61,897 nucleotides of DNA from Fibrobacteria bacterium (GCA_021155885.1 JAJNBB010000010.1:1-61897); one strand, 5' to 3'; shown: positions 2,494-36,703, counted from the first letter of the stretch. The notes: generated by a model not told the origin, from the sequence alone. Made by a program: numbers and translations.

Positions 2494-2748
2494 ATCGAAT
2501 GTGAACTGTCCTCATTCCCGCGGACTTTTCGCGTCTCGCGAGATCGGTGCAGCATTGAGCCGCAGCTTTTCCGCCCGAAGCGAGGCGAGGACCGGATTGC
2601 CGTATTCTGCAAATTTGCGTTGGCAGCCCGCGAAGCGGGCGGTCCCTTAAGGGCATCGGACCGCAGCCGAGCGAGGGTGGAAAAGGTGCGGCTCGTCGTA
2701 GCAAGCATTAGGGGGGTATCTCCAGGTCTCTCTCAATGCAGAAGGATT

Positions 2749-2767
2749 ATCGTATATTTGCGATATA
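2749..2767. promoter_or_regulatory. Putative ArsR-family operator, copy 2 (ATCGTATATTTGCGATATA)
   Basis: Sits 14 nt upstream of the arsR ATG and overlaps a TATATT -10-like hexamer. 17/19 identical to copy 1. Confidence 0.5.
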
Positions 2768-2780
2768 TAAAGGAATCCCC

Positions 2781-3116
2781 ATGGCCTTCCCCAAAAGCAC
2801 CGCCTTCTCCGAAGAGGACCAGCGCCTCGCCGTGATCGCCGACGCCCTCGCGCACCCGGCGCGCATTGCGATCCTGCGCATCCTCGCCAAGCGGGGAACC
2901 TGCATCTGCGGCGAGATCGTCGAGGAATTGCCCCTGGCTCAAAGCACGGTGTCGCAACATCTCAAGGCCCTCAAGGAGGCCGGCCTGATCCAGGGTGAAA
3001 TCGACGGCCCCCGCACCTGTTACTGCCTCGACCCGCGGTCCTTCCACGCGGCCCTCGCCGACCTCAACAAGCTTACCGCCGGCATGAAAAAAGACGCCGA
3101 CGCGTGCTGCGCCTGA
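2781..3116 (+). CDS. arsR: ArsR/SmtB family metalloregulator
   Basis: Winged-HTH motif [47 protein letters not shown] with a CxC metalloid site. Start moved to ATG 2781 (AAGGAA upstream), because the longer ORF from 2736 would cover the operator. Confidence 0.85.
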
Positions 3117-3117
3117 C

Positions 3118-3795
3118 GTGAAGTCCGCGCAACCGAACCTCGCGCGCGCGCTGGCGGCCGAGTTCCTGGGAACCGCCGGGCTCCTCGCGGGCGTGGTGGG
3201 ATCGGGGATCATGGCGGAACGCCTGGCGGGGGGTAACATGGCCGTTGCCCTGCTGGCGAACGCCCTCGCCACGGGATTCCTGCTGCCCGTGCTGATCCTG
3301 GGGTTCGCCTCTTTTTCGGGCGCGCACTTCAACCCCGCGGTGTCGGTCGCCGAAATGCTTTCGGGCCGCCTGCGCGGCAGGCGCGCGGCCGCCTACGGCG
3401 CCGTTCAGTTCGCGGGCGCCGTTTGCGGCGTGTGGCTGGCGCACGCGATGTTCGCGGAAGCCCTGCTGCAAACTTCCGCGCGCGCCCGCGCCGGCGCGGG
3501 ACAGTGGCTGAGCGAGGCCGGGGCCACCTTCGGGCTGGTGCTGATCGTCCTCCTGCGCCGGCGGTACCCGACGGAGGCGCTCCCCTGGATGATCGGCGCC
3601 TATATCGCCGCCGCCTACTTTTTCACCGCCTCGACCAGTTTCGCCAACCCCGCCGTGACGGCGGCCCGCTCCCTCACGAACACCTTCTCCGGCATCCGTC
3701 CCGCGGATGTCCTCGCCTTCATGGCCGCGCAAATAACGGGAATGCTGGCGGCCTGGCTCGCCGCCCGCTGGTTCGAACGAACGGAAACCGCATGA
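3118..3795 (+). CDS. MIP-family aquaglyceroporin (AqpS-like arsenite channel)
   Basis: Two NPA boxes (HFNPAVS, FANPAVT) and 6 predicted TM segments. GTG start lies 1 nt after the arsR stop. Confidence 0.85.
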   Translation: MKSAQPNLARALAAEFLGTAGLLAGVVGSGIMAERLAGGNMAVALLANALATGFLLPVLILGFASFSGAHFNPAVSVAEMLSGRLRGRRAAAYGAVQFAGAVCGVWLAHAMFAEALLQTSARARAGAGQWLSEAGATFGLVLIVLLRRRYPTEALPWMIGAYIAAAYFFTASTSFANPAVTAARSLTNTFSGIRPADVLAFMAAQITGMLAAWLAARWFERTETA

Positions 3796-4184
3796 CTCCC
3801 AAGAAACTGCTCTTCGTCTGCATCGAGAACTCCAACCGCAGCCAGATGTCGCAGGCCTTCGCGCGCATCCTGGGCGGCGACGCCGTCGAGGCCTACAGCG
3901 CGGGCTCGCGCCCCTCGGGCATCGTGAACCCCAAGGCCATCGCCTCCATGAAGGAATTGGGCTACGATCTGTCCGTCCACGACTCGAAGTCGCTCGACGA
4001 CATCCCCGACGTGGAATACGATGCGGTCGTGACCATGGGCTGCGGGGACGCCTGCCCGTTCGTCAAGGCCAAGCGCCGCGAGGACTGGCAGATCCCCGAC
4101 CCGAAGCCCCTGGAGCCGGAGGAGTTCCGCAAGGTGCGCGACCTCATCCGCGACAAGGTCGGCGCGTTGATCGCCTCGTTTTAG
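3792..4184 (+). CDS. arsC: Arsenate reductase, LMW-PTP type
   Basis: P-loop LLFVCIENSNRSQM (CX5R) plus downstream GCGDAC cysteines. ATGA start/stop overlap with the aquaglyceroporin gene. Confidence 0.85.
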   Translation: MTPKKLLFVCIENSNRSQMSQAFARILGGDAVEAYSAGSRPSGIVNPKAIASMKELGYDLSVHDSKSLDDIPDVEYDAVVTMGCGDACPFVKAKRREDWQIPDPKPLEPEEFRKVRDLIRDKVGALIASF

Positions 4185-5215
4185 ACCGTGGGCCGTTGGC
4201 TGCACGGACGGGCCTGCACGATGCAGAGCTGTCCCGTGGGCCCGTCCTTCGCCCATTCCACATCCATCGGTTGCCCGTAATGGTCCGCGATGCACCGGTA
4301 AAACTCCGCGAGCCGCAACACGTCCTCATCGGGCAGGCTGAAAGCTTCCCGTTTTTCCGGGGATGTCTCCACGCGCCGGAGGGTGGGTGCTGCATCGCCG
4401 TGGGGCTCGTAAACCAAGGTGGTCTCCTTCGACCCCAGCCGGCGCCCCACGATCATCAGGCCCTTGTCCCGGCCCGGGACCTTGGAGACCCGGAACTCAT
4501 CGGGCGTCACGGCGATGCGCGTGCCTCCGGTCCCCAGCCCCCAGGTGGAGTCAATCACGATCACCCCGCTGTTTCCCCAGCCGGTCTCGGGCGTGAACGC
4601 GATGCCCGAGGCGCCGCGGTCGCTGCGCACCATGCGCTGCACGCCCACGGACATCGCCACGCCCAAGTGGCCGAAGCCCTTCTCGGTCCGGTACCGAATG
4701 GCCTGGTCGTTGTAGAGCGAAGCGTAACAGCCCCGGCAGGCCTCCAGCAAATTCTCCAGGCCCGAGACGTGCAGAAAGTTGTCCATCTGGCGGGCGAAGG
4801 TCGCCCCGATCAGGCCTTCGCCGATGGCGCTGCTGCGCACGGCGAAGGTGGTGCCCGGCGGACAGCGCTCCACCAGCCGGTCATGCGCTTCGGCGATTTT
4901 CTGGCGGATCTCTTTGGGCCACTCTCCTTCGGCGATCAACGCGCGCACCCCGGCTCCCACCTCGCCCAGGTTCGAAAACCCCCGGTCGTCGAGGGAACGC
5001 AGGAGGACGCACAACTTCGCGTCCAGGCCGTTATGTCTCAGGAAGCGCCCGTAGGCCGGAGCCGTCAGCGCGAACCCGTCGGGAATGGGAATCCCCTCCG
5101 ATCCCAGATGCGCCGCGATCTCGCCGAGCGAAGCATTCTTGCCGCCCACCGCCCATAGCATCTTCATGCGGATATGGGTGAAGTCAAGCGTGCACGGCAC
5201 GTAAGTTCCTCTCAC
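4181..5215 (-). CDS. PEP/pyruvate-binding (PPDK_N / PpsA N-terminal ATP-grasp) domain protein, stand-alone
   Basis: VGGKNASLGE motif near the N-terminus. The 344 aa lack the phospho-His swivel and the PEP-utilising C-terminal domains. Confidence 0.7.
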   Translation of the reverse strand: MRGTYVPCTLDFTHIRMKMLWAVGGKNASLGEIAAHLGSEGIPIPDGFALTAPAYGRFLRHNGLDAKLCVLLRSLDDRGFSNLGEVGAGVRALIAEGEWPKEIRQKIAEAHDRLVERCPPGTTFAVRSSAIGEGLIGATFARQMDNFLHVSGLENLLEACRGCYASLYNDQAIRYRTEKGFGHLGVAMSVGVQRMVRSDRGASGIAFTPETGWGNSGVIVIDSTWGLGTGGTRIAVTPDEFRVSKVPGRDKGLMIVGRRLGSKETTLVYEPHGDAAPTLRRVETSPEKREAFSLPDEDVLRLAEFYRCIADHYGQPMDVEWAKDGPTGQLCIVQARPCSQRPTV

Positions 5216-5516
5216 TCGGAACTCGCGTCCGCTTTTTCCACGAGATCAGTGTATCGACCTTCGGCATGGAATCTCCGTCGTCTTCCCGGTCAAGCAATAG
5301 GCAAACCGCGTGCCAAAAAAAAGTCCGGCTATATTAAATGGATTGAACAAGAGGGGTGAACGCATCCCTGCAGGCTCGGCCAAAACGGCCGATGACGACG
5401 ACAAAATGACGAGAATGTTGCCACAATATTTTAAAGAAAGGCGGAATTTGCAGATAAGCGCTAAATTCGGAACACACGCAACGAAACTTCAAATTTCAAG
5501 GGCGCGCCAAAACGAC

Positions 5517-6884
5517 ATGATGAACCAAAGCCTTGTTATCGTCGATGATGATCAGGACGTGCTGGACTCTTTGACCCGCGCGCTCGAGGACCTCGAGTGC
5601 GATCTCCGCAGCTTCAACAACCCCATCGAGGCCCTGGAAGGCATCTGCGCGGCGCCGCCCCAGGTGGTCGTGACCGATCTCCGGATGCCCGGGATGGGCG
5701 GTCTGGCGCTGCAACAATCGCTGAAGGATCTCAACCCCGACATCCAGGTGATCCTCATCAGCGGGCACGGATCGGTGGACGAAGCCGTTTCGGCCATGAA
5801 AAAAGGCGCCTACGATTTCATTTCCAAGCCGTTCAGGACCGAGGAGATCCTCGCGGTCGTCCAGCGCGCTTTCGAGAAAACCGCCCTGTTGCGCGAGAAT
5901 TTCCTGCTGCGCGAAAAGCTCCGCGCGAGCCGCGTCCCGAATTTCGAGGTCGGAAAAAGCCGGATCATCCGGGAATTGCTGGAGGAAGCGGTCCGGGCCG
6001 CGGCCAGCGAGGCCACCATTTTGATCCTCGGGGAATCGGGCTCCGGAAAACAAATCCTGGCCAACTACATCGTCGCGAATTCGCCGCGCGCGCCATATCC
6101 CTTCATCGAGGTCAACTGCGCGGCCATCCCGGATAACCTCATCGAAGCCGAATTGTTCGGGTATAAAAAGGGAGCCTTCACGGGAGCCTACCAGGACAAG
6201 AAAGGCAAGTTCCAGGAAGCCCACAAGGGGACGATTTTCCTGGACGAGATCGGCGAGGTGCCCCTGAGCGTGCAGTCGAAGCTTCTGCGCGTTTTGCAGG
6301 AGGGCGAGGTGAGCCCGGTGGGAGGCGCGACGCAAAAGGTGGACGTGCGCATTCTCGCGGCCACCAACAAAAACCTCCGCAAGATGGTCGCGGACGGGCT
6401 GTTCCGCGAGGACCTTTTCTACCGCCTGAACGTCATTCCCCTCCAGATCCCGCCCTTGCGCCAACACCCGGAGGATCTGCCGGCCTTCATTTCTCACTTT
6501 CTGGCGAAGTACAGCGCCAAAAACCGCCGGGAAAATCTCTCCGTCAGTCCCGAGGCGATGCTGCTGATGGAGCGCTATCTATGGCCGGGCAACGTGCGCG
6601 AGCTCGAGAACGCCATGGAGCGCGCCGTCATTTTGTGCCAGGGGGACCAAATCACTCCCAAGAACCTGCCCCCGGAGCTCAGCGGGGACTTGAGCGAGAC
6701 GCAGGAATTCCTGTTCCGCAGCGGGTCCACCCTCGAGGAAATGGAATTGCTGATCATCCAGAACGCGCTCAGGCGCAATCATGGAGACCGTGGAAAAACC
6801 GCCCACGAACTGGGCATCGGGGTGCGGACGCTTTACCGCAAGGTCATGCAGATCAGCTCGCGCGACCCCGAAGCGATCGCCTAG
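5517..6884 (+). CDS. Sigma54-dependent response regulator (NtrC family)
   Basis: Receiver domain (VVTDLRMPGMGG), AAA+ domain with GESGSGK and GAFTGA, and a C-terminal Fis-type HTH. Start set at MMNQS. Confidence 0.85.
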   Translation: MMNQSLVIVDDDQDVLDSLTRALEDLECDLRSFNNPIEALEGICAAPPQVVVTDLRMPGMGGLALQQSLKDLNPDIQVILISGHGSVDEAVSAMKKGAYDFISKPFRTEEILAVVQRAFEKTALLRENFLLREKLRASRVPNFEVGKSRIIRELLEEAVRAAASEATILILGESGSGKQILANYIVANSPRAPYPFIEVNCAAIPDNLIEAELFGYKKGAFTGAYQDKKGKFQEAHKGTIFLDEIGEVPLSVQSKLLRVLQEGEVSPVGGATQKVDVRILAATNKNLRKMVADGLFREDLFYRLNVIPLQIPPLRQHPEDLPAFISHFLAKYSAKNRRENLSVSPEAMLLMERYLWPGNVRELENAMERAVILCQGDQITPKNLPPELSGDLSETQEFLFRSGSTLEEMELLIIQNALRRNHGDRGKTAHELGIGVRTLYRKVMQISSRDPEAIA

Positions 6885-8026
6885 GCGGGTTCGCCCGCCG
6901 GCAGCACGATCGTGAAACGGGTGCACCCGAACTGCGAGACGCAGTGGATCGTTCCGCCGTGCTCCTCGATGAGCTTGCGCGCCAGCGCAAGGCCCAGGCC
7001 GGTCCCCTTGGATCCGTCCTTGGTCGTGAAGAACGGCTCGAAGATATGGGCGAGCAGGTGGTCGGGAATGCCGCCCGCGTTGTCCTCGAACCGGATCTCG
7101 ATCTGGTTCTCGCGGCGCCGCGCGTAAATCGAAATCCGCTTGGCTTCCCCGGTTTCCCACTCGGAGAAGGCGTCGCGGGCGTTCGAAATCAGGTTGTGCA
7201 AGACCGACTCGATCTGGGTGTAGTTCCCCCGGATGCTCAGGCTTTCGTCGGCGTATACCGTCACCTCGATGCCGCGCGTCATCAGCTGCCGGTCCATGAA
7301 CAGGAACGCTTCTTCCAGCAGGCGCTTGACCGTGAAGTTTTCCATGCCCTGAATCGCGTCCTTGCGGGAATATTGCAAAAGGTGGTTCAGGACGCGCTGC
7401 ATGCGCTCCACGCCGCGAATCACCGATTCGGTGGCCTTGAGCCCCGCCGCCTTGTCCGCCTCTCCCTCGCGGTTGAACAACTTGCGGAGATACTCCGCCT
7501 CAAGCAGGACGCTGGCCAGGGGGTTGTTCATCTCGTGCGCGAGGCCCGCGCTGAGCGTGCCCAGCACCATGAGCTTGTTGGCGTGAAAAAGCTGCCGCTC
7601 CAGCAGCACCTGCTGCTCCCGGTTCAGCGAGAAGCCCATGTAGCCCACGATCTTCCCGTCGCGGCGGATCGGGGAGATGGTCAGGTGGATGTGGATGGCG
7701 CTGCCGTCCACGGCGCGGTTCACCAGATTGCCGCGCCAGGTTTCGCCGCGGGTGATGGTCTTCCACATGTCCTTATAGAGGCTTTCCGGCGTCGAGCTGG
7801 ACCGGATGAGCCGCTGCGTCTTCCCCAGAATCTCGCTCTCGGACTGAAACTTGTACAGACGCAGGTAGGCGTCGTTGACGCGCACCAGCCTGCCGTCCGG
7901 ATCCGTGATGTTGATGGCGTAGTCCGCCTGGGTGAAAGCGTCCAGCAGCATGGAGCGGTGTCTCCCGCCGGAGAAACCTACTCTGCGTAAATCCGCCTTC
8001 CAAGCGGTCGCGACGGAGCCTGTCAT
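6881..8026 (-). CDS. PAS-domain sensor histidine kinase
   Basis: PAS domain (INITDPDGRLVRVNDAYLRLY), H-box AGLAHEMNNPLA and HATPase_c (GTGLGLA). ATG 8026 is preceded by GGAGGT. Confidence 0.8.
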   Translation of the reverse strand: MTGSVATAWKADLRRVGFSGGRHRSMLLDAFTQADYAINITDPDGRLVRVNDAYLRLYKFQSESEILGKTQRLIRSSSTPESLYKDMWKTITRGETWRGNLVNRAVDGSAIHIHLTISPIRRDGKIVGYMGFSLNREQQVLLERQLFHANKLMVLGTLSAGLAHEMNNPLASVLLEAEYLRKLFNREGEADKAAGLKATESVIRGVERMQRVLNHLLQYSRKDAIQGMENFTVKRLLEEAFLFMDRQLMTRGIEVTVYADESLSIRGNYTQIESVLHNLISNARDAFSEWETGEAKRISIYARRRENQIEIRFEDNAGGIPDHLLAHIFEPFFTTKDGSKGTGLGLALARKLIEEHGGTIHCVSQFGCTRFTIVLPAGEPA

Positions 8027-8255
8027 GGCGTTACCTCCACGGAGCGTAAACCTCTGCCGGCGCCGGAAATCCGGCCGCCGCAAAACACATCCTCGGGAAA
8101 TCCGACCGGATGCCTCCCTGAATGATACATTTCGCAACAAAGTTATTAGAGAGACTTACAAATCTTGACAGGCAATCGTTTCAACGCACGAATTGTTCCC
8201 ATTTTAAACAAAACAAGCCATTTTACCAATCGCGCGTTGGAGGCTCTCCGGGGAA

Positions 8256-8982
8256 TTATTGCGTGAACCACCCTAGCGTCGTCCATTCCGCGAACCAGCG
8301 CGGGAGTTGCTTCGCGAGGCGGTCCAATGCCGGCGGCGCCAGGCCCTCGGCGGCCCGCGCGCAGGCGGCCTCCAGCGCCTCCCCTTCGGACAGGGCGCCG
8401 AGCAACCGAAAACGGACGCGGTCGAGGCGTTGAGGGGCCACCCCTCCCTCGACGTTCCGGTAAACCACCCAGTAACCTTTGCGCTTCACGAAGCGCGGAA
8501 CGAAATCTTCCTCCGCGTCCAGGCAAAGGCCGCGCCGGGTCATCAGGTTCCAGTCCTCCTCCAGCACGGTGACATGCGGTTGCAGCCGCAGCCTGGGCCC
8601 TCCGGCGGCCGCGAGCGTCTCGGTCCGTGGCGGCGGGGCCGCCGGGGCATGGAACGCGCGATTGAAGGCCTGATCCAGGCGGGCGATCTGCGCCGTGCGC
8701 GGGTCGTTCCAGCGCGTGTCGGCGCGCACGAAGTCCGGCAGCCGGTCGCCCAGCGCGTCGAGGTAAGGCGCGCGCGAAGGGTGGCGGGTCAGGTACGCGG
8801 AGGCCAGCCGGTTGAAAACCGGATAGGTCAGCGCGTGCGCGCGGAAGCAGGTCGGCTTCGAGGCCCGGCGCCAGCGCATCTCCCCCGCCGTCGAAACGCT
8901 CGCCCTCGAAATCATACGGAGCCCGCACCGCGGACCCGAAGGCCTCCTGCAGCGCGCGCAGCCGCGCGGGCGCGGACTTCAT
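8256..8982 (-). CDS. bufC: DUF2063 family protein (BufC/HvfC-like MNIO partner), apparently frameshifted near its 5' end
   Basis: ORF 8256..8915 has DUF2063-like sequence (TYPVFNRLASAYLTRHPS...LPDFV..., C-terminal WFAEWTTLGWF). An ATGA-coupled start at 8982 in another frame encodes MKSAPARLRALQEAF, a typical DUF2063 N-terminus. Confidence 0.7.
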
Positions 8983-9803
8983 ACCCTGCTCCGGTGTTGG
9001 CGCGCGGAGAGCGCCTCGGCATGCGCCTCGGGGAACGGCGGGATGTTCTCGTCCCACTCGAGCAAGGTGGGAAAGCCCCCGCCGGATCGCCGCCAGGCGC
9101 GGCGATAGAGTTCCCACACCGCGTCGCACACGGGGGCGTCATGGGTATCCAGCAAGGTTCCGTCGGGATTCCGGTGATGGCCCGCGAGATGGCATTGCAG
9201 CACCCGGTCCCACCGGATCGAATCCACGTAAGCTTCGGCATCGAAAAGGTGATTGACCGAGGACACGTAGATGTTGTTGAGGTCGAGCATGTAATGGCAA
9301 CCCGACAACTCGAGGACGCGGTTGTTGAACTCCCACTCCGTCATTTCGGAACTGGCGAAGGCGACGTAACTGGAAAGGTTTTCGAGGCCGAAGGGCCGCC
9401 CGATGAAATCCTGCACGCGCGCCGCCCGCTCGGCGACGTAGCGGGCGTTCTCCTCGGTGTAGGGAAACGGCAGCAAGTCGTGGTGCTGCACGTCGTGGGC
9501 CGTCGTCCAGCAAAAGTGGTCGGTGAAGTACGGCGCGTCCGTGAAATCCGCCAGCTCCTTCAGGCGGCGCAGGTAGGCCTCATCCAGCGGCGCGGCGGAG
9601 GCGATCCCCAGCGAAACTCCGTGGAGCACGACGGGATAGCGCGAGAGCACCTTCTCGAGGTTTCGTTTCGGCAGCGGGGCGTCGCCCATGAAGTTCTCCG
9701 AAATGATCTCGAAGAAATCCACCTTGGGCCACGCCTCGAAGAGGTGGCGGTAATACGGGATGCGCAGCCCCAGCCCGATGGCTTCTCGCGAAATCGTTTT
9801 CAT
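8979..9803 (-). CDS. bufB: DUF692 / MNIO (multinuclear non-heme iron oxidative) RiPP maturase
   Basis: Full-length DUF692 pattern: GLGLRIPYY...FFEIISENFM...VLHGVSLGI...FTDHFCW...LENLSSY...MLDLNNIYVS...HLAGH...DTHD...TLLEWD. Confidence 0.9.
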   Translation of the reverse strand: MKTISREAIGLGLRIPYYRHLFEAWPKVDFFEIISENFMGDAPLPKRNLEKVLSRYPVVLHGVSLGIASAAPLDEAYLRRLKELADFTDAPYFTDHFCWTTAHDVQHHDLLPFPYTEENARYVAERAARVQDFIGRPFGLENLSSYVAFASSEMTEWEFNNRVLELSGCHYMLDLNNIYVSSVNHLFDAEAYVDSIRWDRVLQCHLAGHHRNPDGTLLDTHDAPVCDAVWELYRRAWRRSGGGFPTLLEWDENIPPFPEAHAEALSARQHRSRV

Positions 9804-9864
9804 GGGTATCCGGGTCGTTCCTCAAAAGCGTTCCGGGCGGTCATGCGCCCGGAACGCCGAAGGA

Positions 9865-10242
9865 TCAATGGCCCTTGCAGCCTCCCAGCCCCTTGCACTC
9901 GTTCTGGCCCTTGCAGCCATGGGCTTCCCCGGCTTTGTCGGCCGCGATGCCGTTTTTCTTGGCGGCTTTCTTGAGATCCTTCTTCGACATGGCGCATCCG
10001 CCCTGGCCCTTGCAGGCGTTCAGGCCCTTGCATTCATGTCCCGCCTTGACCGTATCGGCGGAAGCCGAGCCGCAGCCGCCCTTGCCCTTGCACGAGCTCT
10101 TGCCCTTGCAGCCGCTTTTTTCCTTGACGGTGTCGGGGGCCGCCGGGGAGGCGTGCACGGTGGCGGTGGAGACGAGGCCCGCGGCGATGCCGGCGATGGC
10201 CAATCGGCTAAAAAACGGGGTGAGAAGAGTGGAATTTTTCAT
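9865..10242 (-). CDS. bufA: Signal-peptide-bearing Cys-rich RiPP precursor (bufferin/HvfA-like), 9 Cys in three C-x5-C-x5-C modules
   Basis: Start at MKNSTLL. Signal peptide ends VHA|SP. Modules are GCKGKSSCKGKGGCG, ECKGLNACKGQGGCA and GCKGQNECKGLGGCKGH. Lies immediately upstream of DUF692. Confidence 0.8.
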   Translation of the reverse strand: MKNSTLLTPFFSRLAIAGIAAGLVSTATVHASPAAPDTVKEKSGCKGKSSCKGKGGCGSASADTVKAGHECKGLNACKGQGGCAMSKKDLKKAAKKNGIAADKAGEAHGCKGQNECKGLGGCKGH

Positions 10243-10338
10243 ATACGTCCCTTTTTGAATTTTGAAGGTAGGTTTCCAGGTTTCCAAGGCGGCCGAACCA
10301 GGCCGCCCTCTACTTAAGTCGCGGCGAAAACGAAAGCG

Positions 10339-10797
10339 TTACGCCCTCCCCCGTTTTTTTATCAGCAGCCTGTCCAGCGAAAGGCTCCCCGCGCCCGCGA
10401 TCACCAGCCAGAGCAGCAGGAGGAGATAGAGGAACTCGGAAAATCCCGCCAGATCCGAAAATCCCCGCAGCTCTTCCCTCCGGGCCGTCAGAATGGCCAC
10501 GATCATGATGACGGACAGGGGAAGGGCGGCCAGGCGGGTGAAAAGACCGGCCAGCACGAGGATCCCGAAGGCGAACTCGCTGGTGGCGACCAGATGCGCC
10601 TGAAAGGCGGGAGCGGGCAGACCGAGGGCCGTGAAAAAGCCGATCACCTTGTCGATATGCTGCAATTTTCCCCAGCCCGCTTCGATGAAAACCACGCCCA
10701 AGGTGACCCGCGCCGCCAGCGGCGGCAGCCAGTCCAGGGTTTTCAAAAATTCCCTCAGTTGATCGAAGCGATTGCGGAAAAGAAAAAGCGTGTTCAT
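10339..10797 (-). CDS. DoxX family membrane protein
   Basis: 152 aa with 4 TM segments and the DoxX-type N-terminal motif ARVTLGVVFIEAGWGKL. Confidence 0.85.
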   Translation of the reverse strand: MNTLFLFRNRFDQLREFLKTLDWLPPLAARVTLGVVFIEAGWGKLQHIDKVIGFFTALGLPAPAFQAHLVATSEFAFGILVLAGLFTRLAALPLSVIMIVAILTARREELRGFSDLAGFSEFLYLLLLLWLVIAGAGSLSLDRLLIKKRGRA

Positions 10798-10893
10798 GAA
10801 GACTCCTGGCTGCGGGTCCGGCGAAGGCCCCGGGGGTGAAACGATAGCGGCCCTCCCGGCCGTCCGCGGTAAGTCCCCCGCCGGCTCCCGACG

Positions 10894-11208
10894 TTACGGC
10901 AAATCGGGCCCCTCGCGTTTGCCCTTCCCGGAATCTCCGGAATCCTTCGGGAGGACGCCCTCCCTTTCGAGGAAACGCAGGGTCCGGTCGAGCATCTCGG
11001 CCGGGGGCGGGGTTTCCTCGCGGAAAGCCGCCGGATTCGCCGCCATCCGGTATAACCGCACGAAACCCCGGCAGTCCTTGCAGCCCATCAAATGCACCCG
11101 AAAGCGGAGCCGGACGATCCCGGGCAGGCCGCCTTCCAGGTAATCGTAAACGAATTCCCGGATCTGCCCGCACGGATACGCGAGGGTATAAAAAATCGAA
11201 TCGGTCAT
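10894..11208 (-). CDS. Zinc-finger (zf-HC2, HxxxCxxC) anti-sigma factor, cytoplasmic
   Basis: C13...H39LMGC43KDC46 motif and no TM segment. ATGA overlap with the upstream ECF sigma gene. Confidence 0.75.
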   Translation of the reverse strand: MTDSIFYTLAYPCGQIREFVYDYLEGGLPGIVRLRFRVHLMGCKDCRGFVRLYRMAANPAAFREETPPPAEMLDRTLRFLEREGVLPKDSGDSGKGKREGPDLP

Positions 11209-11855
11209 GCCGCTCCCTTCCGATTAGTCGGTCCGGCGGCCATTTTGTTTCGGACCCATTCCACGATTTGTTTTCGGGTCCGGTGCAAAAGCACCCGGAC
11301 GTTCTCGGGGGAAATCCCCAGCATCGCCGCCACCTCTTCCCCGGAAAATCCCTCCACGTCGCGCAGGCGGTAGACCTCGCTTCCCGGCGGGACCAACAGC
11401 CGGATCGCCTCGGCGATCAGGATCTCGGCCGCGCTCTTCGCGAGAACGCGATCCGCCGAGGCCTCCCAGGGCGTCAGCGCGCTCCAGGAATCCGCGCGCG
11501 CCTCCGGATCCGCGGCGCTTTCCTCCGGTTCGAGGGCTTCTTCCCTCCGCCGGGTTTTCACGGCGATTTGATCGCAAATCTTGTGGTAGGCCAGGCTATA
11601 GATCCAGGTGGTCAGCTTCGACCCTCCCTGAAATCCGGCCAGCCCCTTATGGACGGCCAGGTAGGTCTCCTGCAGCACCTCCTGGCACTCCTCCCGGGAA
11701 GAAAAGTGCCGCCGGGCGAAGGCGAACAGGGAATCATGCGTGAGGCGGACCAGGCGGTCGAACATCCGGGATTTCATTTCCGCGTCCAGAAGCGCCGCCA
11801 AGAACTCCGGCGCGTTCAATTCCGCGAAAGCGTCCCGTCCTTGCCGTCCCTGCAT
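11205..11855 (-). CDS. ECF-type RNA polymerase sigma-70 factor
   Basis: Region 2 (QEVLQETYLAVHKGL...TWIYSLAYHKICD) and region 4 (YRLRDVEGFSGEEVAAMLGISPENVRVLLHRTRK). An alternative start at M27 is possible. Confidence 0.85.
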   Translation of the reverse strand: MQGRQGRDAFAELNAPEFLAALLDAEMKSRMFDRLVRLTHDSLFAFARRHFSSREECQEVLQETYLAVHKGLAGFQGGSKLTTWIYSLAYHKICDQIAVKTRRREEALEPEESAADPEARADSWSALTPWEASADRVLAKSAAEILIAEAIRLLVPPGSEVYRLRDVEGFSGEEVAAMLGISPENVRVLLHRTRKQIVEWVRNKMAAGPTNRKGAA

Positions 11856-11878: not shown

Positions 11879-11905
11879 AAAAAAAGCGACTCCCCGGGAG
11901 TCGCC
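11879..11905 (-). terminator. Rho-independent terminator of ssrA
   Basis: Minus strand GGCGACTCCC-GGGGAGTCGC hairpin followed by a T-run, 13 nt after the tmRNA CCA end. Confidence 0.7.
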
Positions 11906-11917
11906 TTCTTTCATCCG

Positions 11918-12287
11918 TGGTGGAGGCGGCGGGAATCGAACCCGCGTCCGAAATGAACTTACCGATCGCTCCTACATGCTTTTCCCTTGATTTGATCTCG
12001 TCTCCGGAGTCGCCCTAAGGATCGGCTCCCCCGAAGACCAGCCCGCTGATCTCGACCCCGCATCGCAGGCGGCCTGCGGGATCCAGCCTCAGAGGTATGC
12101 CAGATCCCGCGGCGCTGAGACGCCATCCGCGAGACCCGTGGCGCCTAGTGTTTAGTTAGGCAGCCAATGCGTAAGAATTGGATTCTTCAGCATTTGTGTT
12201 TTCCCTAGAGTGATTAACGAGGCCAACTAGAGATCCTCGGCATGCGACTTTCGACTCGCCCGATCCCGTCGAAACCTTTACGCCCCC
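11918..12287 (-). ncRNA. ssrA: tmRNA (SsrA); predicted tag AEESNSYALAA
   Basis: 5' end GGGGGCGTAAAGGTTTCGACGGGA and 3' end GGACGCGGGTTCGATTCCCGCCGCCTCCACCA, with a G3:U pair in the acceptor stem. Internal reading frame GCT GAA GAA TCC AAT TCT TAC GCA TTG GCT GCC TAA. Confidence 0.9.
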
Positions 12288-13392: not shown

Positions 13393-13899
13393 ATGCCGAA
13401 GACCCCCGATGCCATTACCCTGCTGAAGGCCGACCACGAAAAAGTCGCCGGGCTTTTCGAGAAATTCGAGCACGCCAAATCGGATGCCAGGAAAAAAGAA
13501 CTGGCGATGAAAATCTGCCTGGAACTCATCATCCATACCAAGATCGAAGAGGACATTTTCTACCCCGCCTGCAAGGACCACATCGAGGACGACCTGTGGC
13601 ATGAAGCCTGGGTCGAGCACGACGGCGCCAAGGTGCTGATCGCCGAAATCCGCCGGGACCACCACGGGGACACCTTCTATGACGCCAAGGTCAAGGTCCT
13701 CGCCGAAATGATCAAGCACCATGTCAAGGAAGAAGAGGAGCGCGGGGGCATGTTCGCCCAGGCCCGGAAATCGGGCGTGGACATGGAGGCGCTGGGAAAA
13801 CGCCTGGCCAACGAAAAGAAAGTCCTCATGGCCAAGTACAAAAAGGAAGGCACTCCCCTGCCGGCCACGCCCAGCTTCACGGGAACGCGGCTGGCCTGA
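13393..13899 (+). CDS. Hemerythrin (HHE cation-binding) domain protein
   Basis: LLKADHEKV...HTKIEEDIFYPA...VEHDGAKVLI...IKHHVKEEE pattern. Confidence 0.8.
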   Translation: MPKTPDAITLLKADHEKVAGLFEKFEHAKSDARKKELAMKICLELIIHTKIEEDIFYPACKDHIEDDLWHEAWVEHDGAKVLIAEIRRDHHGDTFYDAKVKVLAEMIKHHVKEEEERGGMFAQARKSGVDMEALGKRLANEKKVLMAKYKKEGTPLPATPSFTGTRLA

Positions 13900-17159: not shown

Positions 17160-18191
17160 ATGAAAACAACAACCCCCCTTCTCCATACCTTGCTGGCAAC
17201 CTTGCTCCTGACCGCCGCCTCTTCGCGGGCCCAGGCGCTTCAGCCCGTGAACCTGCGCTCCACGGCGGGCTTCGCCGTGCTGGCGGGGTCGCTGGTCTCC
17301 AACATCCCGACCTCGGCGGTGACCGGAGACATCGGCCTCAGCCCCGCCACCGGCGGCAACATCACCGGCTTCGGCCCCACGGAAGTCATTGGCACCATTT
17401 ATACGGTGGACGCCTCCGGCCCGGCCGGCTCGGTGCCCGCGGCCTCGCTGCTCACCACCGCCAAGGGCGATCTCACCCTCGCCTACAACGACGCCGCCGG
17501 CCGCACGCCCGTTCCCTCAGGCCCCTTCCTGAACCCCGGCTCGGGCTCCGGCAATATCGGCGGGCTGACCCTCGGCCCGGGCCTGTACAAGTTCACCAGC
17601 TCGGCCTCCATCACCGGATCCAACCTGACGCTGGCGGGAACCGCCTCCGACGTCTGGATCTTCCAGATCGCCTCGGGACTCACCGTGGGCAACGGCATCC
17701 AGGTGATTCTCACGGGCGGAGCGCGGGCCGCCAACGTATTCTGGCAGGTGGGCACCTCGGCCATGCTGGGCACCACCTCGGTGTTCAAGGGCACCATCCT
17801 GGCCGACCAGTCGATTTCCCTCAACACCGGCGCAAGCCTCGAGGGCCGGGCCCTGGCGAGCGTCGCCGCGGTCACGCTGGCCTCCAACGCCATCACCCAG
17901 CCGGGCGCGGCGACTTCCCTCTCGGGCGCCGCCGACCGTGACTCCCGGTTTGATTTCCAGCCGTCCAAGAACGGGGGCTTCGAGTTCGTGGTCCCCACTT
18001 CGGGCCCGGCGACCCTCACGCTGCTCAACGCCTACGGCAGGGAACTCGCGGTGTTGTTCCGCGGCTACGCCCAGGCCGGCAAGCATTACGAAATCCAGTT
18101 CAGCCGCCTGCGCATTTCCAAGGGCCTGTATTTCGCGAAGCTGGAAACCAGCGGCGAGATCCGGATCGGAAGGATGCTGCTGGGTCTTTAA
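17160..18191 (+). CDS. DUF3494 (ice-binding-like beta-solenoid) secreted protein with Por/T9SS-like C-terminal tail
   Basis: Signal peptide, then AGFAVLAGSLVSN...VTGDIGLSP...GLYKF...VFWQVG...GTILA...GRALA pattern. C-terminus ...KGLYFAKLETSGEIRIGRMLLGL. Confidence 0.7.
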   Translation: MKTTTPLLHTLLATLLLTAASSRAQALQPVNLRSTAGFAVLAGSLVSNIPTSAVTGDIGLSPATGGNITGFGPTEVIGTIYTVDASGPAGSVPAASLLTTAKGDLTLAYNDAAGRTPVPSGPFLNPGSGSGNIGGLTLGPGLYKFTSSASITGSNLTLAGTASDVWIFQIASGLTVGNGIQVILTGGARAANVFWQVGTSAMLGTTSVFKGTILADQSISLNTGASLEGRALASVAAVTLASNAITQPGAATSLSGAADRDSRFDFQPSKNGGFEFVVPTSGPATLTLLNAYGRELAVLFRGYAQAGKHYEIQFSRLRISKGLYFAKLETSGEIRIGRMLLGL

Positions 18192-28704: not shown

Positions 28705-31395
28705 ATGGAATCCTGGCATATCTTCGACGCCGCCGAGACCCTCCGTCGTCTCCGAACCGACCCTTCGCTAGGACTTGGCCTCGATGAATCCCGCCGGAGG
28801 CTGGAAAAGGAAGGCCCCAATGCCCTGCGCGAAGCCCGGCCCGTCCGCCCGTGGAGGTTGTTTCTCGGGCAGTTCAAAAGCCCCCTGGTGACTTTACTAC
28901 TCGCCGCCGCCCTGGTGGCCGGGCTGCTCGGCGAATGGATCGACAGCATCGCCATCGCCGTCATCGTCTTCCTCAACGCCCTGGTCGGATTCATCCAGGA
29001 GTACCACGCCGAAAAGGCCATCGCCGGCCTTCAGCGGCTCACCGCTCCCCGCGCCCGCATCCTGCGCGGCGGGCGCGACCTCCAGGTGCCCGCCGCCGAG
29101 GTCGTGCCCGGGGATATCCTGTTGCTGGAGGCCGGAGACTTGGTGGCCGCCGACGCGCGCCTCTTGCAGGCCGCCGACCTGCGGGTGCGCGAGGCCGCGT
29201 TGACCGGGGAATCCGAGGCCGTTGCCAAGGACCCGGCAGCCGTGGTGAACGCAAGCACCCCCTTGGGCGACCGCGTGAATCTCGTGTTCATGGGCACCGC
29301 AGTCACCGCCGGCACGGGCCGCGCGGTGGTCACCGTCACGGGGATGAACACCGAGATCGGCCGCATCGCGACGTTGCTAGAAACCGGCGCCGACACGGCG
29401 ACACCCCTGCAGCGGCAGCTCGCGGACTTTGGGACCTGGATCCTGCGGGCGAGCCTGGCGCTGGTGGCCTTGGTTTTTCTTCTCGGCCTGCTGCGCGGCC
29501 AAGGCGCGGGGCCGATGTTCCTCGTGGCGGTGAGCATGGCCGTGGCTGCCGTCCCCGAAGGAATGCCCGCGGTGGTCACCATCGCGCTGGCGCTGGGGGT
29601 CCGGCGCATGGCGCGCCGCCGCGCGCTGATCCGCAGGCTTCCCGCCGCGGAGACCTTGGGGGGCACCACGGTGATTTGCACCGACAAGACCGGAACCCTC
29701 ACCCGCGGCGAGATGGCCGTGCGCGAGTTGTACGTCGCGGGCGCGCCGTTCCGGGTGACGGCCACCGGGGTGGAACCCTGCGGTGACGCGCCGCACGCGG
29801 GCGCCTATGCAAATGCGCTGCGGGAGCAGGCCCTCGTCCACCTCGGGTCGAACAACGCCACCTTGTATCGGGAGGGAACGCTCTGGAAGGCTTCCGGGGA
29901 TCCCACCGAGGCCGCGCTCCTGGTCTCCGCCCGCAAGGCCGCGCCCGGACTGCCCGACGAAGGCGCGGGCGGTGAGGTCCTGCGCGAGTACCCCTTTGAC
30001 TCCGACGTCAAGCGCCACGGCGTCCTGCGCCGCCTGCCCGACGGCCGCGTCCGGCTCCTCGTGAACGGGGCTCCCGACCTGCTGCTGGACCTTTGCTCCC
30101 GCGAGCTCGGTCCGGACGGGCCGCGTCCGTTGACCGCGGATGATCACCGGCGCATCCTGGAGGCCAACGCCGCCATGGCGGAGCGGGCCCTGCGCGTCCT
30201 CGGCTCGGCTTATCGCGACTTCGAGGGCGACTTCAAGGACTTCGCGCCGGGAGAGGCCCTGCCGACGCGCGCCGAGGCGGAACGCGACCTGGTGTTCGCC
30301 GGCCTGGCGGGCATGCAGGACCCGCCGCGCCCGGAGGCGGCCGAGGCGGCGGCGCGCTGCCGCGAGGCGGGCATCCACGTAGTCATGATCACCGGTGACC
30401 ACCCGGGCACGGCGGCGGCCATCGCGCGCGAGCTCGAGATCGCGGGACCCGGAGCGGAGGCCGTCCGGGGAGAGGACCTCGACGCCCTCGACGACGAAGC
30501 GTTGCGCGCGCGCGTGCGGGACGTGCGCGTCTTCGCCCGCGTCACGGCGGCGCACAAGCTGCGCATCGTGAACGCCTGGCGCGCCCATGGAGCCGTGGTG
30601 GCCATGACCGGGGACGGGGTGAACGACGCGCCCGCCCTCAAGGGCGCCGACATCGGCATCGCCATGGGGATCGCGGGCACCGAGGTGACCAAGCAGGCCG
30701 CCGATCTCGTGCTCGCCGACGACAACTTCGCCACCATCGTCTCGGCCGTGGAGGAGGGACGCCGCGTCTACTTCAACATCCGCAAGACCTTGCAGTACCT
30801 GCTGGCTGGCAACGCGGGAGAGCTGCTGGTCATGATCGCCGCGCTGGCCGCGGGCCTGCCCCTTCCCCTGTTGCCCATCCACCTCCTGTGGATCAACCTC
30901 ATCACCGACGGCCTGCCCGCGCTCGTGCTGGCCGCCGACAAGGCCTCTCCGGGATTGATGCGGCGCGGGCCCCGCCCGTCCGGAGAGGCCCTGGTGAACA
31001 AGTCCTTCCTTTGGGGACTTCTTGGCACGGGACTGCTGACGGCCGGAACCTCGCTCACGGCCTACCTGCTCGTGCTCCAAGGTGGGGACGTGGCGGCCGC
31101 GCGCAGCGCCGCCTTCGATACCCTCGTGCTCTCCGAGGTGTTCCGGGCCCTGGCCTACCGCAACAATGAGCAACCTTTCTGGCATGCCGGCTTCCGCGAG
31201 CTGTTCCCGCTCCTGGCGGTGGCGGCCGGCGTGCTGGCGCTTCAGGCCGCCTGCCATGAGATCGGATTCTTGAAGACCGTGCTGCACTTGCGTCCATGGA
31301 CGGGGTCGTCGTTTCTGATGGTGCTCGGCTTGAGCGTGATTCCCCTGATCGTATTGGAAAGCCGGAAGTGGATCCGGAACGCCGGACGCGCTTGA
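28705..31395 (+). CDS. Cation-transporting P-type ATPase (type II, Ca2+/Mg2+-like)
   Basis: TGES, CTDKTGTLT, MITGDH and TGDGVNDAPALK motifs, with 10 predicted TM segments. Confidence 0.9.
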   Translation: MESWHIFDAAETLRRLRTDPSLGLGLDESRRRLEKEGPNALREARPVRPWRLFLGQFKSPLVTLLLAAALVAGLLGEWIDSIAIAVIVFLNALVGFIQEYHAEKAIAGLQRLTAPRARILRGGRDLQVPAAEVVPGDILLLEAGDLVAADARLLQAADLRVREAALTGESEAVAKDPAAVVNASTPLGDRVNLVFMGTAVTAGTGRAVVTVTGMNTEIGRIATLLETGADTATPLQRQLADFGTWILRASLALVALVFLLGLLRGQGAGPMFLVAVSMAVAAVPEGMPAVVTIALALGVRRMARRRALIRRLPAAETLGGTTVICTDKTGTLTRGEMAVRELYVAGAPFRVTATGVEPCGDAPHAGAYANALREQALVHLGSNNATLYREGTLWKASGDPTEAALLVSARKAAPGLPDEGAGGEVLREYPFDSDVKRHGVLRRLPDGRVRLLVNGAPDLLLDLCSRELGPDGPRPLTADDHRRILEANAAMAERALRVLGSAYRDFEGDFKDFAPGEALPTRAEAERDLVFAGLAGMQDPPRPEAAEAAARCREAGIHVVMITGDHPGTAAAIARELEIAGPGAEAVRGEDLDALDDEALRARVRDVRVFARVTAAHKLRIVNAWRAHGAVVAMTGDGVNDAPALKGADIGIAMGIAGTEVTKQAADLVLADDNFATIVSAVEEGRRVYFNIRKTLQYLLAGNAGELLVMIAALAAGLPLPLLPIHLLWINLITDGLPALVLAADKASPGLMRRGPRPSGEALVNKSFLWGLLGTGLLTAGTSLTAYLLVLQGGDVAAARSAAFDTLVLSEVFRALAYRNNEQPFWHAGFRELFPLLAVAAGVLALQAACHEIGFLKTVLHLRPWTGSSFLMVLGLSVIPLIVLESRKWIRNAGRA

Positions 31396-33600: not shown

Positions 33601-34337
33601 ACCGCGGCCTCCGCATCGCTCTCGTGCACCGTTTCTTCCAGATATCCAGCCACATGACGCTCAAACAAGGACGGATTGCTTCCCATTCCCGGGACATCGA
33701 TCGCCGCGACGCATTCCGCCTTGCCCTCGCGCAAGAAGACCAGGCGATCGGAGATTTCCCATAGATCGTCGAGCCGGTGCGTGGTCAGGAGAATGGCCTT
33801 TCCCCGCGCTTTTTCCTCGCGCAAGGCCTCCATCAACCGCAGTCGGGAAGCCGGGTCGAGGCTCGCGGTGGGCTCATCCAGCACCAGCAGGCTCGCATCG
33901 AAGGCAAGCGCCAGCGCGGCGTTGACCTTCTGCTTCATGCCGCCCGAGAGGGTCTTCCATTTCTGGTCGAGGAAGGCGGTGATCCCCAGCCGTTCGCCAT
34001 GCCCGAAACGGGCGCGAACGCTCCGTATGCTTTCCACCAGCCGGGTAATCTCGCGCACGGTCAGGTTTTCGGGGAAGCCGGGAACCTGCGGCATGTAGCC
34101 GATGTGGCGGCGGTAGGCGGGCCCAAGGCGGACGTCCTCGCTCATGACGTGAATCTTCCCGCCATCGGGCACGTGCAAGCCGAGCAGGCAGCGCATGAGG
34201 GTCGTCTTTCCGGACCCGTTGGGCCCCAGGATGGCGGTCACCGTACCCGGCAACGCCTCGAGATTCACTCCCCGTAAAACTTCTTTTTTCCCGTAAGCCT
34301 TGCGAAGGCCCGCGATGCTAAGCGATGCCGTGTTCAT
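33597..34337 (-). CDS. nosF: ABC transporter ATP-binding protein NosF
   Basis: Walker A GPNGSGKTT, signature LSGGMKQK and Walker B LLVLDEP. 4-nt overlaps on both sides. Confidence 0.85.
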   Translation of the reverse strand: MNTASLSIAGLRKAYGKKEVLRGVNLEALPGTVTAILGPNGSGKTTLMRCLLGLHVPDGGKIHVMSEDVRLGPAYRRHIGYMPQVPGFPENLTVREITRLVESIRSVRARFGHGERLGITAFLDQKWKTLSGGMKQKVNAALALAFDASLLVLDEPTASLDPASRLRLMEALREEKARGKAILLTTHRLDDLWEISDRLVFLREGKAECVAAIDVPGMGSNPSLFERHVAGYLEETVHESDAEAAV

Positions 34338-35602
34338 GTTTGCTTTCTGGTTACGCTCGCGCGACCCCGCGGAAGCGGCATGCGGGGCTCCGCATCCTCC
34401 AGGGAGGCCGGCGAAAGCGTGGGGAAAAGTCGTTCCAGGGCGTTTAGCAAGGTCACGAAATGACTTCGCAACAGGGAGGCTGCCTGGGGATGACGCAGCA
34501 TCAGGGCGGGAAAAAGTTCAACCGGGCGGTGCGGAACGTCTCCCGTTCCGTCCCGGTCCAGGTCCCAGCCCGCGTACCGATCCCACGTATTGCGACGAAA
34601 AATGTTGCTGTTACCCATGCTGGGATTGTAGGCCACGTCGAACGTGTTGCTTTCGAAGCGATTGTTTTCGAAAAGGTTCCGGTCGCAATCCGCCAGGATG
34701 CGCAACGCCCAGCCATTGCGGCGAAAATCGTTTCCCGAAACCACCAGGTCGCTGCTGCCTTCCTGAAAGACGGCTACGGTATTATGGGAGAAGGTGTTCC
34801 GCTCGATCCGGCTGTCCCGCAGGGACTTGAGCAGGAGCCCATAGCTGGCCGGCCCCCAGTTCCGCTCGAAGCGATTATCCCGCATGTCCACGCGATCGGA
34901 GTACATCACCGCCACGCCCGCCCCGTTCTCGCGAAAGACGTTGCGCTGGTAGCTGTTTCCGTTGGAGTACATGAAATGCAATCCGTAACGTGCATTACCT
35001 TCGCAGACGTTTCCGCTCACGAAAGTGTTCCCGGTGAATTCGAGGTAAATCCCGTCCCGGTGTCCCTGAACATGATTGTCGGTGATGGTCAGGCTGTCGC
35101 TTTTCCAGAAATGCAGGCCGTTTCCGTTGGAAAGCTCCCCGCTGCGCAGTCCCTCGAAGCGATTCCCCCGGATGACCGCGCCGACCGCCTGAAGGCCGTA
35201 CACGCCGAAGAATGCCCGCTCGAACCGGTTTTTCTCGATATGGACGCCGCGTACCCGGGAGATCCAGATGGCGCCGCTTTCCCGGAGATGATTCACGCCG
35301 ACATTGCGAAAGGTAAGCCCGATGACGGCGACCCCGTCGGCCCGGATGTCGAGGATGGTTTGCCCGCCACGGGCATCGAGAACGGCGCCGGGTTCTCCCA
35401 GAAGGGTGACCTGCCGGCTCGCGACAAGGCCGGATTCATGGTAAAGTCCGGCCGTCACGAGCAAGGTATCGCCCGGTTCGGCCGCGGCGAGGGCCGCGGC
35501 GACGGTTCGATAAGCCTGCCCCGCCCCAACGTGAAGAGACTCGGCGCCTGATGCCTGCGCCAAGAACGCCGCCGCGAACGGGAGGAGATGCGGTAAGCGC
35601 AT
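34334..35602 (-). CDS. nosD: Periplasmic beta-helix copper-binding protein NosD
   Basis: Signal peptide MRLPHLLPFAAAFLAQASGA and repeated right-handed beta-helix units (N.F..N..G....S..N....N). Start at ATG 35602 rather than 35635. Confidence 0.85.
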   Translation of the reverse strand: MRLPHLLPFAAAFLAQASGAESLHVGAGQAYRTVAAALAAAEPGDTLLVTAGLYHESGLVASRQVTLLGEPGAVLDARGGQTILDIRADGVAVIGLTFRNVGVNHLRESGAIWISRVRGVHIEKNRFERAFFGVYGLQAVGAVIRGNRFEGLRSGELSNGNGLHFWKSDSLTITDNHVQGHRDGIYLEFTGNTFVSGNVCEGNARYGLHFMYSNGNSYQRNVFRENGAGVAVMYSDRVDMRDNRFERNWGPASYGLLLKSLRDSRIERNTFSHNTVAVFQEGSSDLVVSGNDFRRNGWALRILADCDRNLFENNRFESNTFDVAYNPSMGNSNIFRRNTWDRYAGWDLDRDGTGDVPHRPVELFPALMLRHPQAASLLRSHFVTLLNALERLFPTLSPASLEDAEPRMPLPRGRASVTRKQT

Positions 35603-35610
35603 GCGTGACC

Positions 35611-36693: not shown

Positions 36694-36703
36694 ACCACCC
36701 CCC

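Follow-up and report, generated by a model that had tools for sequence, protein, structure and literature searches.

The closest described systems to the locus reported here are the bufferins and oxazolin. In the Bufferin 2 system of Caulobacter vibrioides (BufA2B2C2) the MNIO enzyme BufB and its DUF2063 partner BufC are necessary and sufficient to convert cysteines of the precursor into thiooxazoles, each with a loss of 4 Da, DoxX is dispensable, and the Buf2 peptide, with four modified (-4 Da) cysteines and one disulphide, guards against copper (PMC11626156). In a survey of bufferin biosynthetic gene clusters (BGCs) the Buf2 precursors contained 6 cysteines (90% of cases) or 12, and sigma/anti-sigma (NrsF) genes were found in Buf1 BGCs and not in Buf2 BGCs (PMC12452194). 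The hvf operon of non-typeable Haemophilus influenzae has the order DoxX-A-B-C, and HvfA is modified only with both HvfB and HvfC (PMC11252979). Here we describe a related gene cluster at positions 8256-11855 of a 61,897-nucleotide (nt) stretch of DNA from a Fibrobacteria bacterium (GCA_021155885.1 JAJNBB010000010.1:1-61897), the whole of which is called the window. A first-pass annotation of this DNA had presented the locus as a little-characterised system, a description that has been overtaken by the biochemical work on bufferins and oxazolin in 2024-2026 and by the BufA2, BufB, HvfC and HvfX models in NCBIfam.

Our reading, to which we give a probability of roughly 70%, is that the locus is a bufferin-type cluster for a metallophore of the RiPP class (ribosomally synthesised and post-translationally modified peptides), Buf2-related and in the hvf gene order, with an adjacent extracytoplasmic function (ECF) sigma factor and zinc-binding anti-sigma factor (ZAS) in probable control and with a deletion in its copy of bufC. 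Sequence and homology place the gene for a Cys-rich, Sec-exported precursor beside those for an MNIO of the BufB type, a DUF2063 protein of the BufC type and a DoxX membrane protein. Six co-directional units run on the minus strand from 11855 down to 8256, and all six genes are identifiable by matches to hidden Markov models (HMMs); five are intact genes according to the listing of open reading frames (ORFs) and direct reading. The gaps between genes are 96, 96 and 61 nt. The first-pass annotation had given the same six genes and both ATGA overlaps, and its description stands for the sigma factor, anti-sigma factor, DoxX, precursor and MNIO genes and for the overlaps, which were seen in the sequence; the DUF2063 gene that it placed at 8256-8982 is not an ORF and carries a 95-nt deletion. 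The features are as follows (aa, amino acids).

11886..12287, minus strand: upstream boundary, tmRNA gene 11918-12287 (ARAGORN; Rfam RF00023, 167.7 bits) and terminator hairpin 11886-11904 followed by seven T residues (terminator scan; also read in the sequence)
11205..11855, minus strand: ECF sigma factor, 216 aa (Pfam Sigma70_r2 37 bits, r4_2 42 bits; NCBIfam sigma70-ECF 83 bits)
11205-11208, minus strand: ATGA overlap of the sigma and anti-sigma genes, read in the sequence
10894..11208, minus strand: soluble zinc-binding (ZAS) anti-sigma factor, 104 aa (Pfam zf-HC2 37 bits)
10339..10797, minus strand: DoxX-family membrane protein, BufD/HvfX-like (Pfam DoxX 80 bits)
9865..10242, minus strand: bufA-like precursor, 125 aa, Sec signal peptide, 9 Cys
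9827..9858, minus strand: 13-bp GC-rich hairpin, then UUUU, directly 3' of the precursor stop codon (folding)
8979..9803, minus strand: MNIO (DUF692) maturase, bufB-like, 274 aa (PF05114 319 bits, E 2e-95)
8979-8982, minus strand: ATGA overlap of the MNIO stop codon and the bufC ATG at 8982, read in the sequence
8841..8982, minus strand: bufC (DUF2063/HvfC_N) 5' fragment, 47 native codons (tblastn; 100% identical to the related contig L069)
8256..8840, minus strand: bufC 3' fragment, 194 native codons, in another frame, that of ORF 8256-8915

The MNIO protein covers positions 2-260 of the 263 in the PF05114 profile, and its motifs HGVSL, DHF, EN, DLNN, HLAGH, DTH and EWD align to the DUF692 structure 3BWW. 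Among the NCBIfam models MNIO_BufB gave the best match, and ApyH and ChrH, as well as HvfB (245 bits against a cut-off of 360) and MbnB (43.3 against 325), scored well below it. With Bufferin 2 (BUF_6/12Cys; PMC11626156, PMC12452194) the locus shares a Sec-signal precursor of C-x5-C-x5-C (CxGxNxCKGxGxC) modules, an adjacent MNIO with MNIO_BufB as its best curated match, a DUF2063 partner and a predicted periplasmic product. Unlike Bufferin 2, its precursor has 9 Cys in three modules and a ~25-aa helix, KDLKKAAKKxGxxxDKAGxAH, between modules B and C instead of the short GDNG turn, and at this locus DoxX is present upstream, an ECF/ZAS pair is linked and bufC is broken. The DoxX gene lies upstream of the precursor gene, and DoxX is frequent but not essential in bufferin clusters. 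Of the features of a Buf2-type bufferin, the locus has the Sec signal with conserved Cys modules, the adjacent BufB-type MNIO and DoxX, and it lacks a precursor above the BufA2 cut-off and an intact DUF2063/BufC gene.

The order DoxX-precursor-MNIO-DUF2063 and the signal-peptide precursor are also those of hvfXABC (PMC11252979), in which MNIO and partner are both needed for Cys modification. The locus differs from oxazolin in that the precursor has no EGKCG repeats and that neither HvfB (245 against 360 bits) nor HvfC (27 against 142) equivalogs are present, and hvf has no sigma/anti-sigma pair. Bufferin 1 of Caulobacter and Cupriavidus offers the likeness of a bufferin BGC beside an ECF sigma/anti-sigma pair (SigF/NrsF), which there mediates induction by metal stress; in that system a membrane protein, NrsF (DUF1109), serves as anti-sigma factor and the precursor is a DUF2282 protein with 4 Cys, whereas here a 104-aa soluble zf-HC2 protein accompanies a Buf2-like precursor. 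In the methanobactin system MbnABC an MNIO and its partner likewise convert Cys to Cu-binding heterocycle/thio groups, but the present locus has no leader-type MbnA, no MbnC and no export or uptake genes, its precursor bears a Sec signal peptide, its MNIO falls far below the MbnB cut-off and its product is not expected to be secreted.

The signal peptide of the precursor comprises residues 1-31, with n, h and c regions and the site VHA|S read in the sequence. The remainder contains three C-x5-C-x5-C modules of the form CKGxxxCKGxGGC, which account for the 9 Cys, arranged as follows.

10072-10110, minus strand: module A, C45-C57, C-x5-C-x5-C
9994-10032, minus strand: module B, C71-C83, C-x5-C-x5-C
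9916-9993, minus strand: linker helix, residues 84-109, predicted
9877-9915, minus strand: module C, C110-C122, C-x5-C-x5-C

In an alignment of 51 sequences module B, the ~25-aa helix ending in KAGxAH (G105, H108) and module C were invariant and module A was variable; proteins of the family have 6, 9 or 11 Cys. Nine Cys were found in 15/120 precursor homologues, and the orthologous precursors of L064, L065 and L070 (related loci are given by our numbers) also have 9. In an exhaustive phmmer search of 1.84 billion representatives, the 60-residue core matched 42 representative clusters at E<=1e-10 and 199 at E<=1e-3; the linker-type precursors are a small, rare subfamily. Pfam gave no significant match to the precursor family, PF24646/DUF7640 touching the tandem 12-Cys type only and below its cut-off. 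When the precursor was modelled with AlphaFold2 from the 51-sequence alignment, the mean pLDDT (predicted local distance difference test score) was 51.6 and the linker helix, residues 87-97, alone was confident.

The hairpin behind the precursor gene (9827-9858) has a perfect 13-bp stem, a folding energy of -34.5 kcal/mol and a z score of -5.3. Hairpins of 10-13 bp are found in the same place in L070, L064 and L065, with the same stem sequence as the window in L070 and different sequences in L064 and L065; all four lineages that share the six-gene order (see below) have such a hairpin behind bufA. We take it for a probable partial terminator, or a stabiliser, such as often follows the structural gene of a RiPP, and it would probably keep the precursor mRNA in excess over the enzyme mRNA.

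Related loci were recovered with the MNIO protein as query (57) and with the profile of the precursor (80). In most of these ~130 loci, from Acidobacteriota, Planctomycetota, Verrucomicrobiota, Myxococcota and other phyla, the genes for precursor, MNIO and DUF2063 follow one another in that order, and the same six-gene order as in the window was found in four lineages (L069, L070, L064 and L065) of one Fibrobacterota subclade. The first-pass annotation had called the locus a bufferin/HvfA-type MNIO cluster for a RiPP metallophore and had taken conserved linkage of the Cys-rich ORF with DUF692 and DUF2063 in orthologous loci as a test of it; the core call was right, and the linkage is kept across many phyla. 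As to the profiles, the DUF692 and DoxX proteins passed the Pfam models as anticipated, and the Cys-rich protein and the DUF2063 protein did not fully match theirs, the former staying below the BufA2 cut-off and the latter matching in part (see below). Outside the clade the MNIO proteins nearest to that of the window are those of L001, L002 and L034 (70-74% identity), loci that have an intact BufC and no sigma, ZAS or DoxX gene. Their precursors (L001 2664-2966, L002 4988-5287, L034 4410-4709) are different: the signal peptide carries a lipobox (…TGC/…TAC), a further six Cys form the pattern HDCxGxNxCKG…HDCQGxSSCxGGSC, and no NCBIfam model matches them.

The bufC gene of the window is interrupted. 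Its span, 8256-8982, measures 727 nt, which is no multiple of 3, and contains a frameshift: the first 47 codons are in the frame of the ATG at 8982 and the last 194 in the frame of ORF 8256-8915. In tblastn residues 17-70 of intact BufC proteins aligned here in frame -2, and the Pfam DUF2063 profile was matched at positions 49-83 only, compared with 1/2-83 for the intact proteins of L001 and L002 and 15-83 for that of L003. With the frame-joined BufC sequence as query for intact relatives, an intact BufC of 273 aa (P0121) was found that is 89% identical over the joined query, the query being exactly 31 residues shorter. The contig of P0121, L069 (8178 nt, from a metagenome of the Joint Genome Institute, JGI), matches the window in gene order and flanking genes and is 99.7% identical to it over 4564 nt and 99.97% over 3521 nt, ~8.1 kb in all, and between the two aligned blocks exactly 95 nt present in L069 are missing from the window at 8840/8841. 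The deleted segment corresponds to BufC residues ~48-79 and encodes (R)GPLRGRDRLVVYNRQYWYRLFTILQEEFPLL; this block is the most conserved one in the alignment with the intact BufC proteins of L034, L001, L002 and L003 and forms the N-terminal part of the Pfam DUF2063 profile. A programmed frameshift was ruled out, 31 conserved residues being physically absent. Given that the deletion takes away this conserved block and that BufC-type partners are needed in two published systems, this bufC copy is predicted to be defective, and by analogy with those systems it should fail in precursor modification unless the deletion is an assembly artefact or the partner is supplied in trans.

The deletion is either a real loss-of-function allele in the strain population or a local assembly error. 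That it arose in the assembly or consensus of a strain-mixed metagenome bin, the organism itself carrying an intact L069-type cluster, is a serious possibility to which we give somewhat less than even odds. In the cluster of proteins sharing 90% identity both JGI members (P0121 and P0377, on two contigs) are intact at 273 aa, and the sole shortened member is the 207-aa product on the 61,897-nt contig of the window itself, so that the shortened form is known from a single contig. Apart from the deletion, window and L069 are 99.7-100% identical over the 8.1 kb, and their other differences within the cluster are only 12 substitutions, all at 9444-9841 (~400 nt), of which 11 are within the MNIO gene and mostly synonymous, with two amino-acid changes (E75M and E83G). 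This clustering is typical of a mixed-strain consensus, and suggests either such a consensus or a recombination patch. On the other hand, microhomology at the junction is limited to 1 nt and no repeat is present there to make an assembly collapse, 95 nt is far too long for a homopolymer miscall, and the neighbouring genes checked for frameshifts are intact, the contig not being generally indel-ridden. An assembly riddled with frameshifts in general was ruled out separately, the suspect overlapping MIP and LMWPc/ArsC ORFs proving to be two intact genes.

Several observations weigh against the bufferin reading or against parts of it. Scores fell below the cut-offs of curated models, in the case of the MNIO and DoxX marginally: the MNIO scored 307.3 bits with MNIO_BufB, its best NCBIfam match, which is 2.7 under the cut-off of 310; DoxX scored 74.7 with HvfX (cut-off 80); HvfC (cut-off 142) gave 27 for the window and only 40 for the intact BufC of the clade; and the precursor scored 37.7 with BufA2 (NF050166; cut-off 60). 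With the same BufA2 model the clade mates scored 36.9-40.0 and other linker-type proteins 22-29, and the classical Buf2 controls (L039 and L005) passed with 64.6 and 70.1. In five loci of Fibrobacteria metagenome-assembled genomes (MAGs), L079-L081, L083 and L089, the gene for a linker-type precursor converges on that for an MNIO of 53-54% identity to the one in the window and no DUF2063 gene was detectable nearby, and in L075, L076 and L077 linker-type precursors are orphans with no MNIO within 5 kb. BufC dependence, or modification itself, may therefore not be universal in the linker-type subfamily; in the BufC-less loci the partner may be encoded elsewhere, the MNIO may need none, or the peptide may work unmodified. 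These relatives lower our confidence that the deleted bufC allele is functionally dead.

The orphan precursors also raise the question whether the Cys-rich protein acts mainly unmodified, as a metallothionein-like periplasmic thiolate binder of metal for which the MNIO is optional and the loss of bufC minor. Linker-type precursors are often such orphans, and many bufferin precursors in general are unlinked to MNIO genes (PMC12452194). This explanation is nevertheless improbable, given that in the clade of the window and in most related loci the precursor gene is directly followed by MNIO and BufC genes, that Caulobacter mutants of the modification pathway, with unmodified product, lose copper protection (PMC11626156) and that free periplasmic thiols are expected to form disulphides.

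The sigma factor has ~110 orthologues at 45-76% identity, those with a named source coming from Fibrobacteres/Fibrobacteria/Fibrobacterota MAGs and so pointing to the likely phylum of the window. Alignment of the close ones along their entire length supports the ATG at 11855 as the start. In the ZAS the ligand set C13/H39xxxC43xxC46 (C-x25-H-x3-C-x2-C) is invariant in 11 orthologues or analogues, and no stretch resembling a transmembrane (TM) segment was found in the window protein or in any of these 11. The protein thus has the HxxxCxxC motif with an upstream Cys and no TM segment, and its gene is coupled to that of an ECF sigma factor by the ATGA overlap, as expected of a ZAS and in agreement with the earlier description as a cytoplasmic HxxxCxxC anti-sigma factor. 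With the SigR-RsrA switch for thiol-oxidative stress in Streptomyces it shares solubility, a similar size, the spacing C-x25-H-x3-C-x2-C and translational coupling to an ECF sigma factor; it comes from another phylum, scores 16.1 bits against a cut-off of 62.5 with the RsrA equivalog model (TIGR03988), and its likeness to RsrA is one of sequence. It is not of the NrsF type (DUF1109), zf-HC2 being the sole Pfam match above threshold and a TM segment being absent.

Sigma orthologues that are 66-100% identical (L069, L070, L064 and L065/L066) are followed by the genes for ZAS, DoxX, a precursor with 9 Cys, MNIO and BufC. Those at 47-57% identity (L067, L068, L071, L072, L073 and L074) are followed by a gene for a ~100-aa soluble ZAS and then by DUF547, RapA or oxidoreductase genes, with no buf genes nearby. 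Given that these orthologous pairs and the closest outside MNIO relatives do not have each other's genes, we conclude that the sigma/ZAS pair is an older module of the Fibrobacterota lineage and that the DoxX-buf cassette was recruited to it in one subclade. The claim that the cluster has its own sigma/anti-sigma pair accordingly holds for the linkage in L064, L065, L069 and L070 and not for the wider family of the pair.

A comparison by eye of the regions upstream of sigma, DoxX and bufA in the window and eight related loci found no -35/-10 motif common to the three; a GTAAC...CGGAC-like motif was seen upstream of the non-buf orthologues only, and the region upstream of bufA likewise showed no sigma-54 motif. 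Moreover, only ~25 nt separate the ssrA terminator from the sigma ATG, too little for a conventional promoter. The lack of a shared motif would fit a sigma/ZAS pair that is a mere neighbour with its own thiol/redox regulon, the inserted DoxX-buf cassette being under a separate promoter or regulator, as would the weak terminator-like hairpin between the ZAS and DoxX genes, the 47-57% pairs that are never followed by buf genes and the L001, L002 and L034 relatives that lack sigma, ZAS and DoxX. We regard this as possible, with the odds against it: four lineages have retained the same order of six genes, with no gap above ~140 nt, despite diverged intergenic DNA, and soluble-ZAS pairs are also found, differently arranged, beside a precursor gene in one further locus and beside a buf cluster in another. 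The first is L078 (Fibrobacteria), where a precursor of the linker type with 11 Cys immediately precedes an orthologous pair (sigma 48%, ZAS 57% identity; 182-1966), the precursor being at the contig start and no MNIO being present in the 5.6 kb examined. The second is L007 (a Burkholderiales MAG), where genes for an unrelated ECF sigma factor and a 94-aa soluble ZAS come after bufABC. Both arrangements support a functional tie of sigma/ZAS with buf over chance, and it is from adjacency that we infer control of the cluster by the sigma factor.

If the cluster is of the bufferin type, BufB and BufC would, by analogy with the characterised systems, jointly oxidise several Cys of the precursor to 5-thiooxazole-type heterocycles in the cytoplasm, with a loss of 4 Da each; the modified product would be exported by Sec with cleavage of the signal peptide, and the peptide would remain periplasmic and there buffer Cu(I)/Cu(II) with high affinity. 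The conserved adjacency suggests that the cassette is probably co-transcribed with, or controlled by, the lineage-conserved ECF sigma factor, that this factor may be held by the small cytoplasmic RsrA-like zinc/thiol anti-sigma factor, and that thiol-reactive stress (oxidants, electrophiles or cytoplasmic Cu(I)) might switch the cluster on.

A peptide for the supply of copper rather than for its detoxification, for example to the multicopper N2O reductase encoded ~25 kb away, has a small probability in our view. Methanobactins, which are products of related MNIO enzymes, are copper-acquisition chalkophores, and a nosZ-nosL-nosD cluster is present at 34334-38698. The bufferin-type cluster, however, has no exporter, TonB-dependent receptor or leader protease, its Sec signal predicts periplasmic retention as in bufferins, the MbnB score is 43 against 325, and a distance of 25 kb is no linkage.

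The nitrous-oxide reductase cluster itself is on the minus strand and comprises a NosZ-like nos_propeller gene (36704-38698), a NosL-domain gene (35611-36693) and NosD (34334-35635); it is a copper-demanding periplasmic enzyme system. Nearer to the bufferin cluster, a PAS-HisKA-HATPase kinase gene (6881-8140, minus strand) lies tail-to-tail, with a 4-nt overlap, with a sigma-54 response regulator gene (5310-6884, plus strand). L069 has both neighbours too, and in L070 the kinase position is occupied by a gene; the pair appears to be ancestral synteny and not part of the buf cluster. Further along are a gene for a stand-alone PPDK_N (phosphoenolpyruvate/pyruvate-binding) domain protein (4181-5215, minus strand) and, at 3118-4184 on the plus strand, an intact MIP/aquaglyceroporin-like gene with both NPA motifs followed directly by a low-molecular-weight phosphatase/ArsC-type gene, an arsenic-type resistance pair.

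On the other side the tmRNA gene (tag AEESNSYALAA) is immediately upstream of the sigma gene. A genomic island at ssrA was ruled out for this contig, there being no second tmRNA 3' end in the window and no integrase here. In L070 phage-type integrase, AlpA and HTH genes (2514-4324) are found just upstream of sigma, with the terminator and spacer kept, and this region may be an island inserted at the ssrA-side boundary; in L064 (5504-5959) and L065 (747-1229) a Cys-free MerR-family gene, preceded by plsY, replaces ssrA upstream of sigma. The plus strand of the window further encodes a hemerythrin (13393-13899), hemerythrins also being found near the sigma orthologues of L067 and L073, an ice-binding-like protein (17160-18191) and a type II P-type cation ATPase (28705-31395).

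It is tempting, if rather unlikely at present, to regard the linker-type precursors as a separate bufferin class which in one Fibrobacterota subclade has been wired to a cytoplasmic RsrA-like thiol/zinc switch. The defining unit of such a class, as we propose it, would be two invariant CKGxNxCKGxGGC modules bridged by a helix. The BufC-less relatives, together with the bufC-deleted allele, hint that the class might be matured without a DUF2063 partner or be active unmodified. If true, this would be the first soluble ZAS anti-sigma factor controlling a periplasmic RiPP metallophore.

In annotation, the "207-aa DUF2063 protein" of this contig should be treated as a shortened remnant; at the same time, the near-identical intact and deleted bufC alleles offer a natural control for the need of the partner in this subfamily. 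Bufferins are a newly recognised and very widespread bacterial copper defence whose regulation and precursor diversity are still being mapped. The locus adds to them a precursor architecture missed by the current curated models, extends the family into Fibrobacterota and shows reproducible linkage to a cytoplasmic switch of the ZAS type, sigma genes having been found in the published survey only with Buf1 and NrsF.

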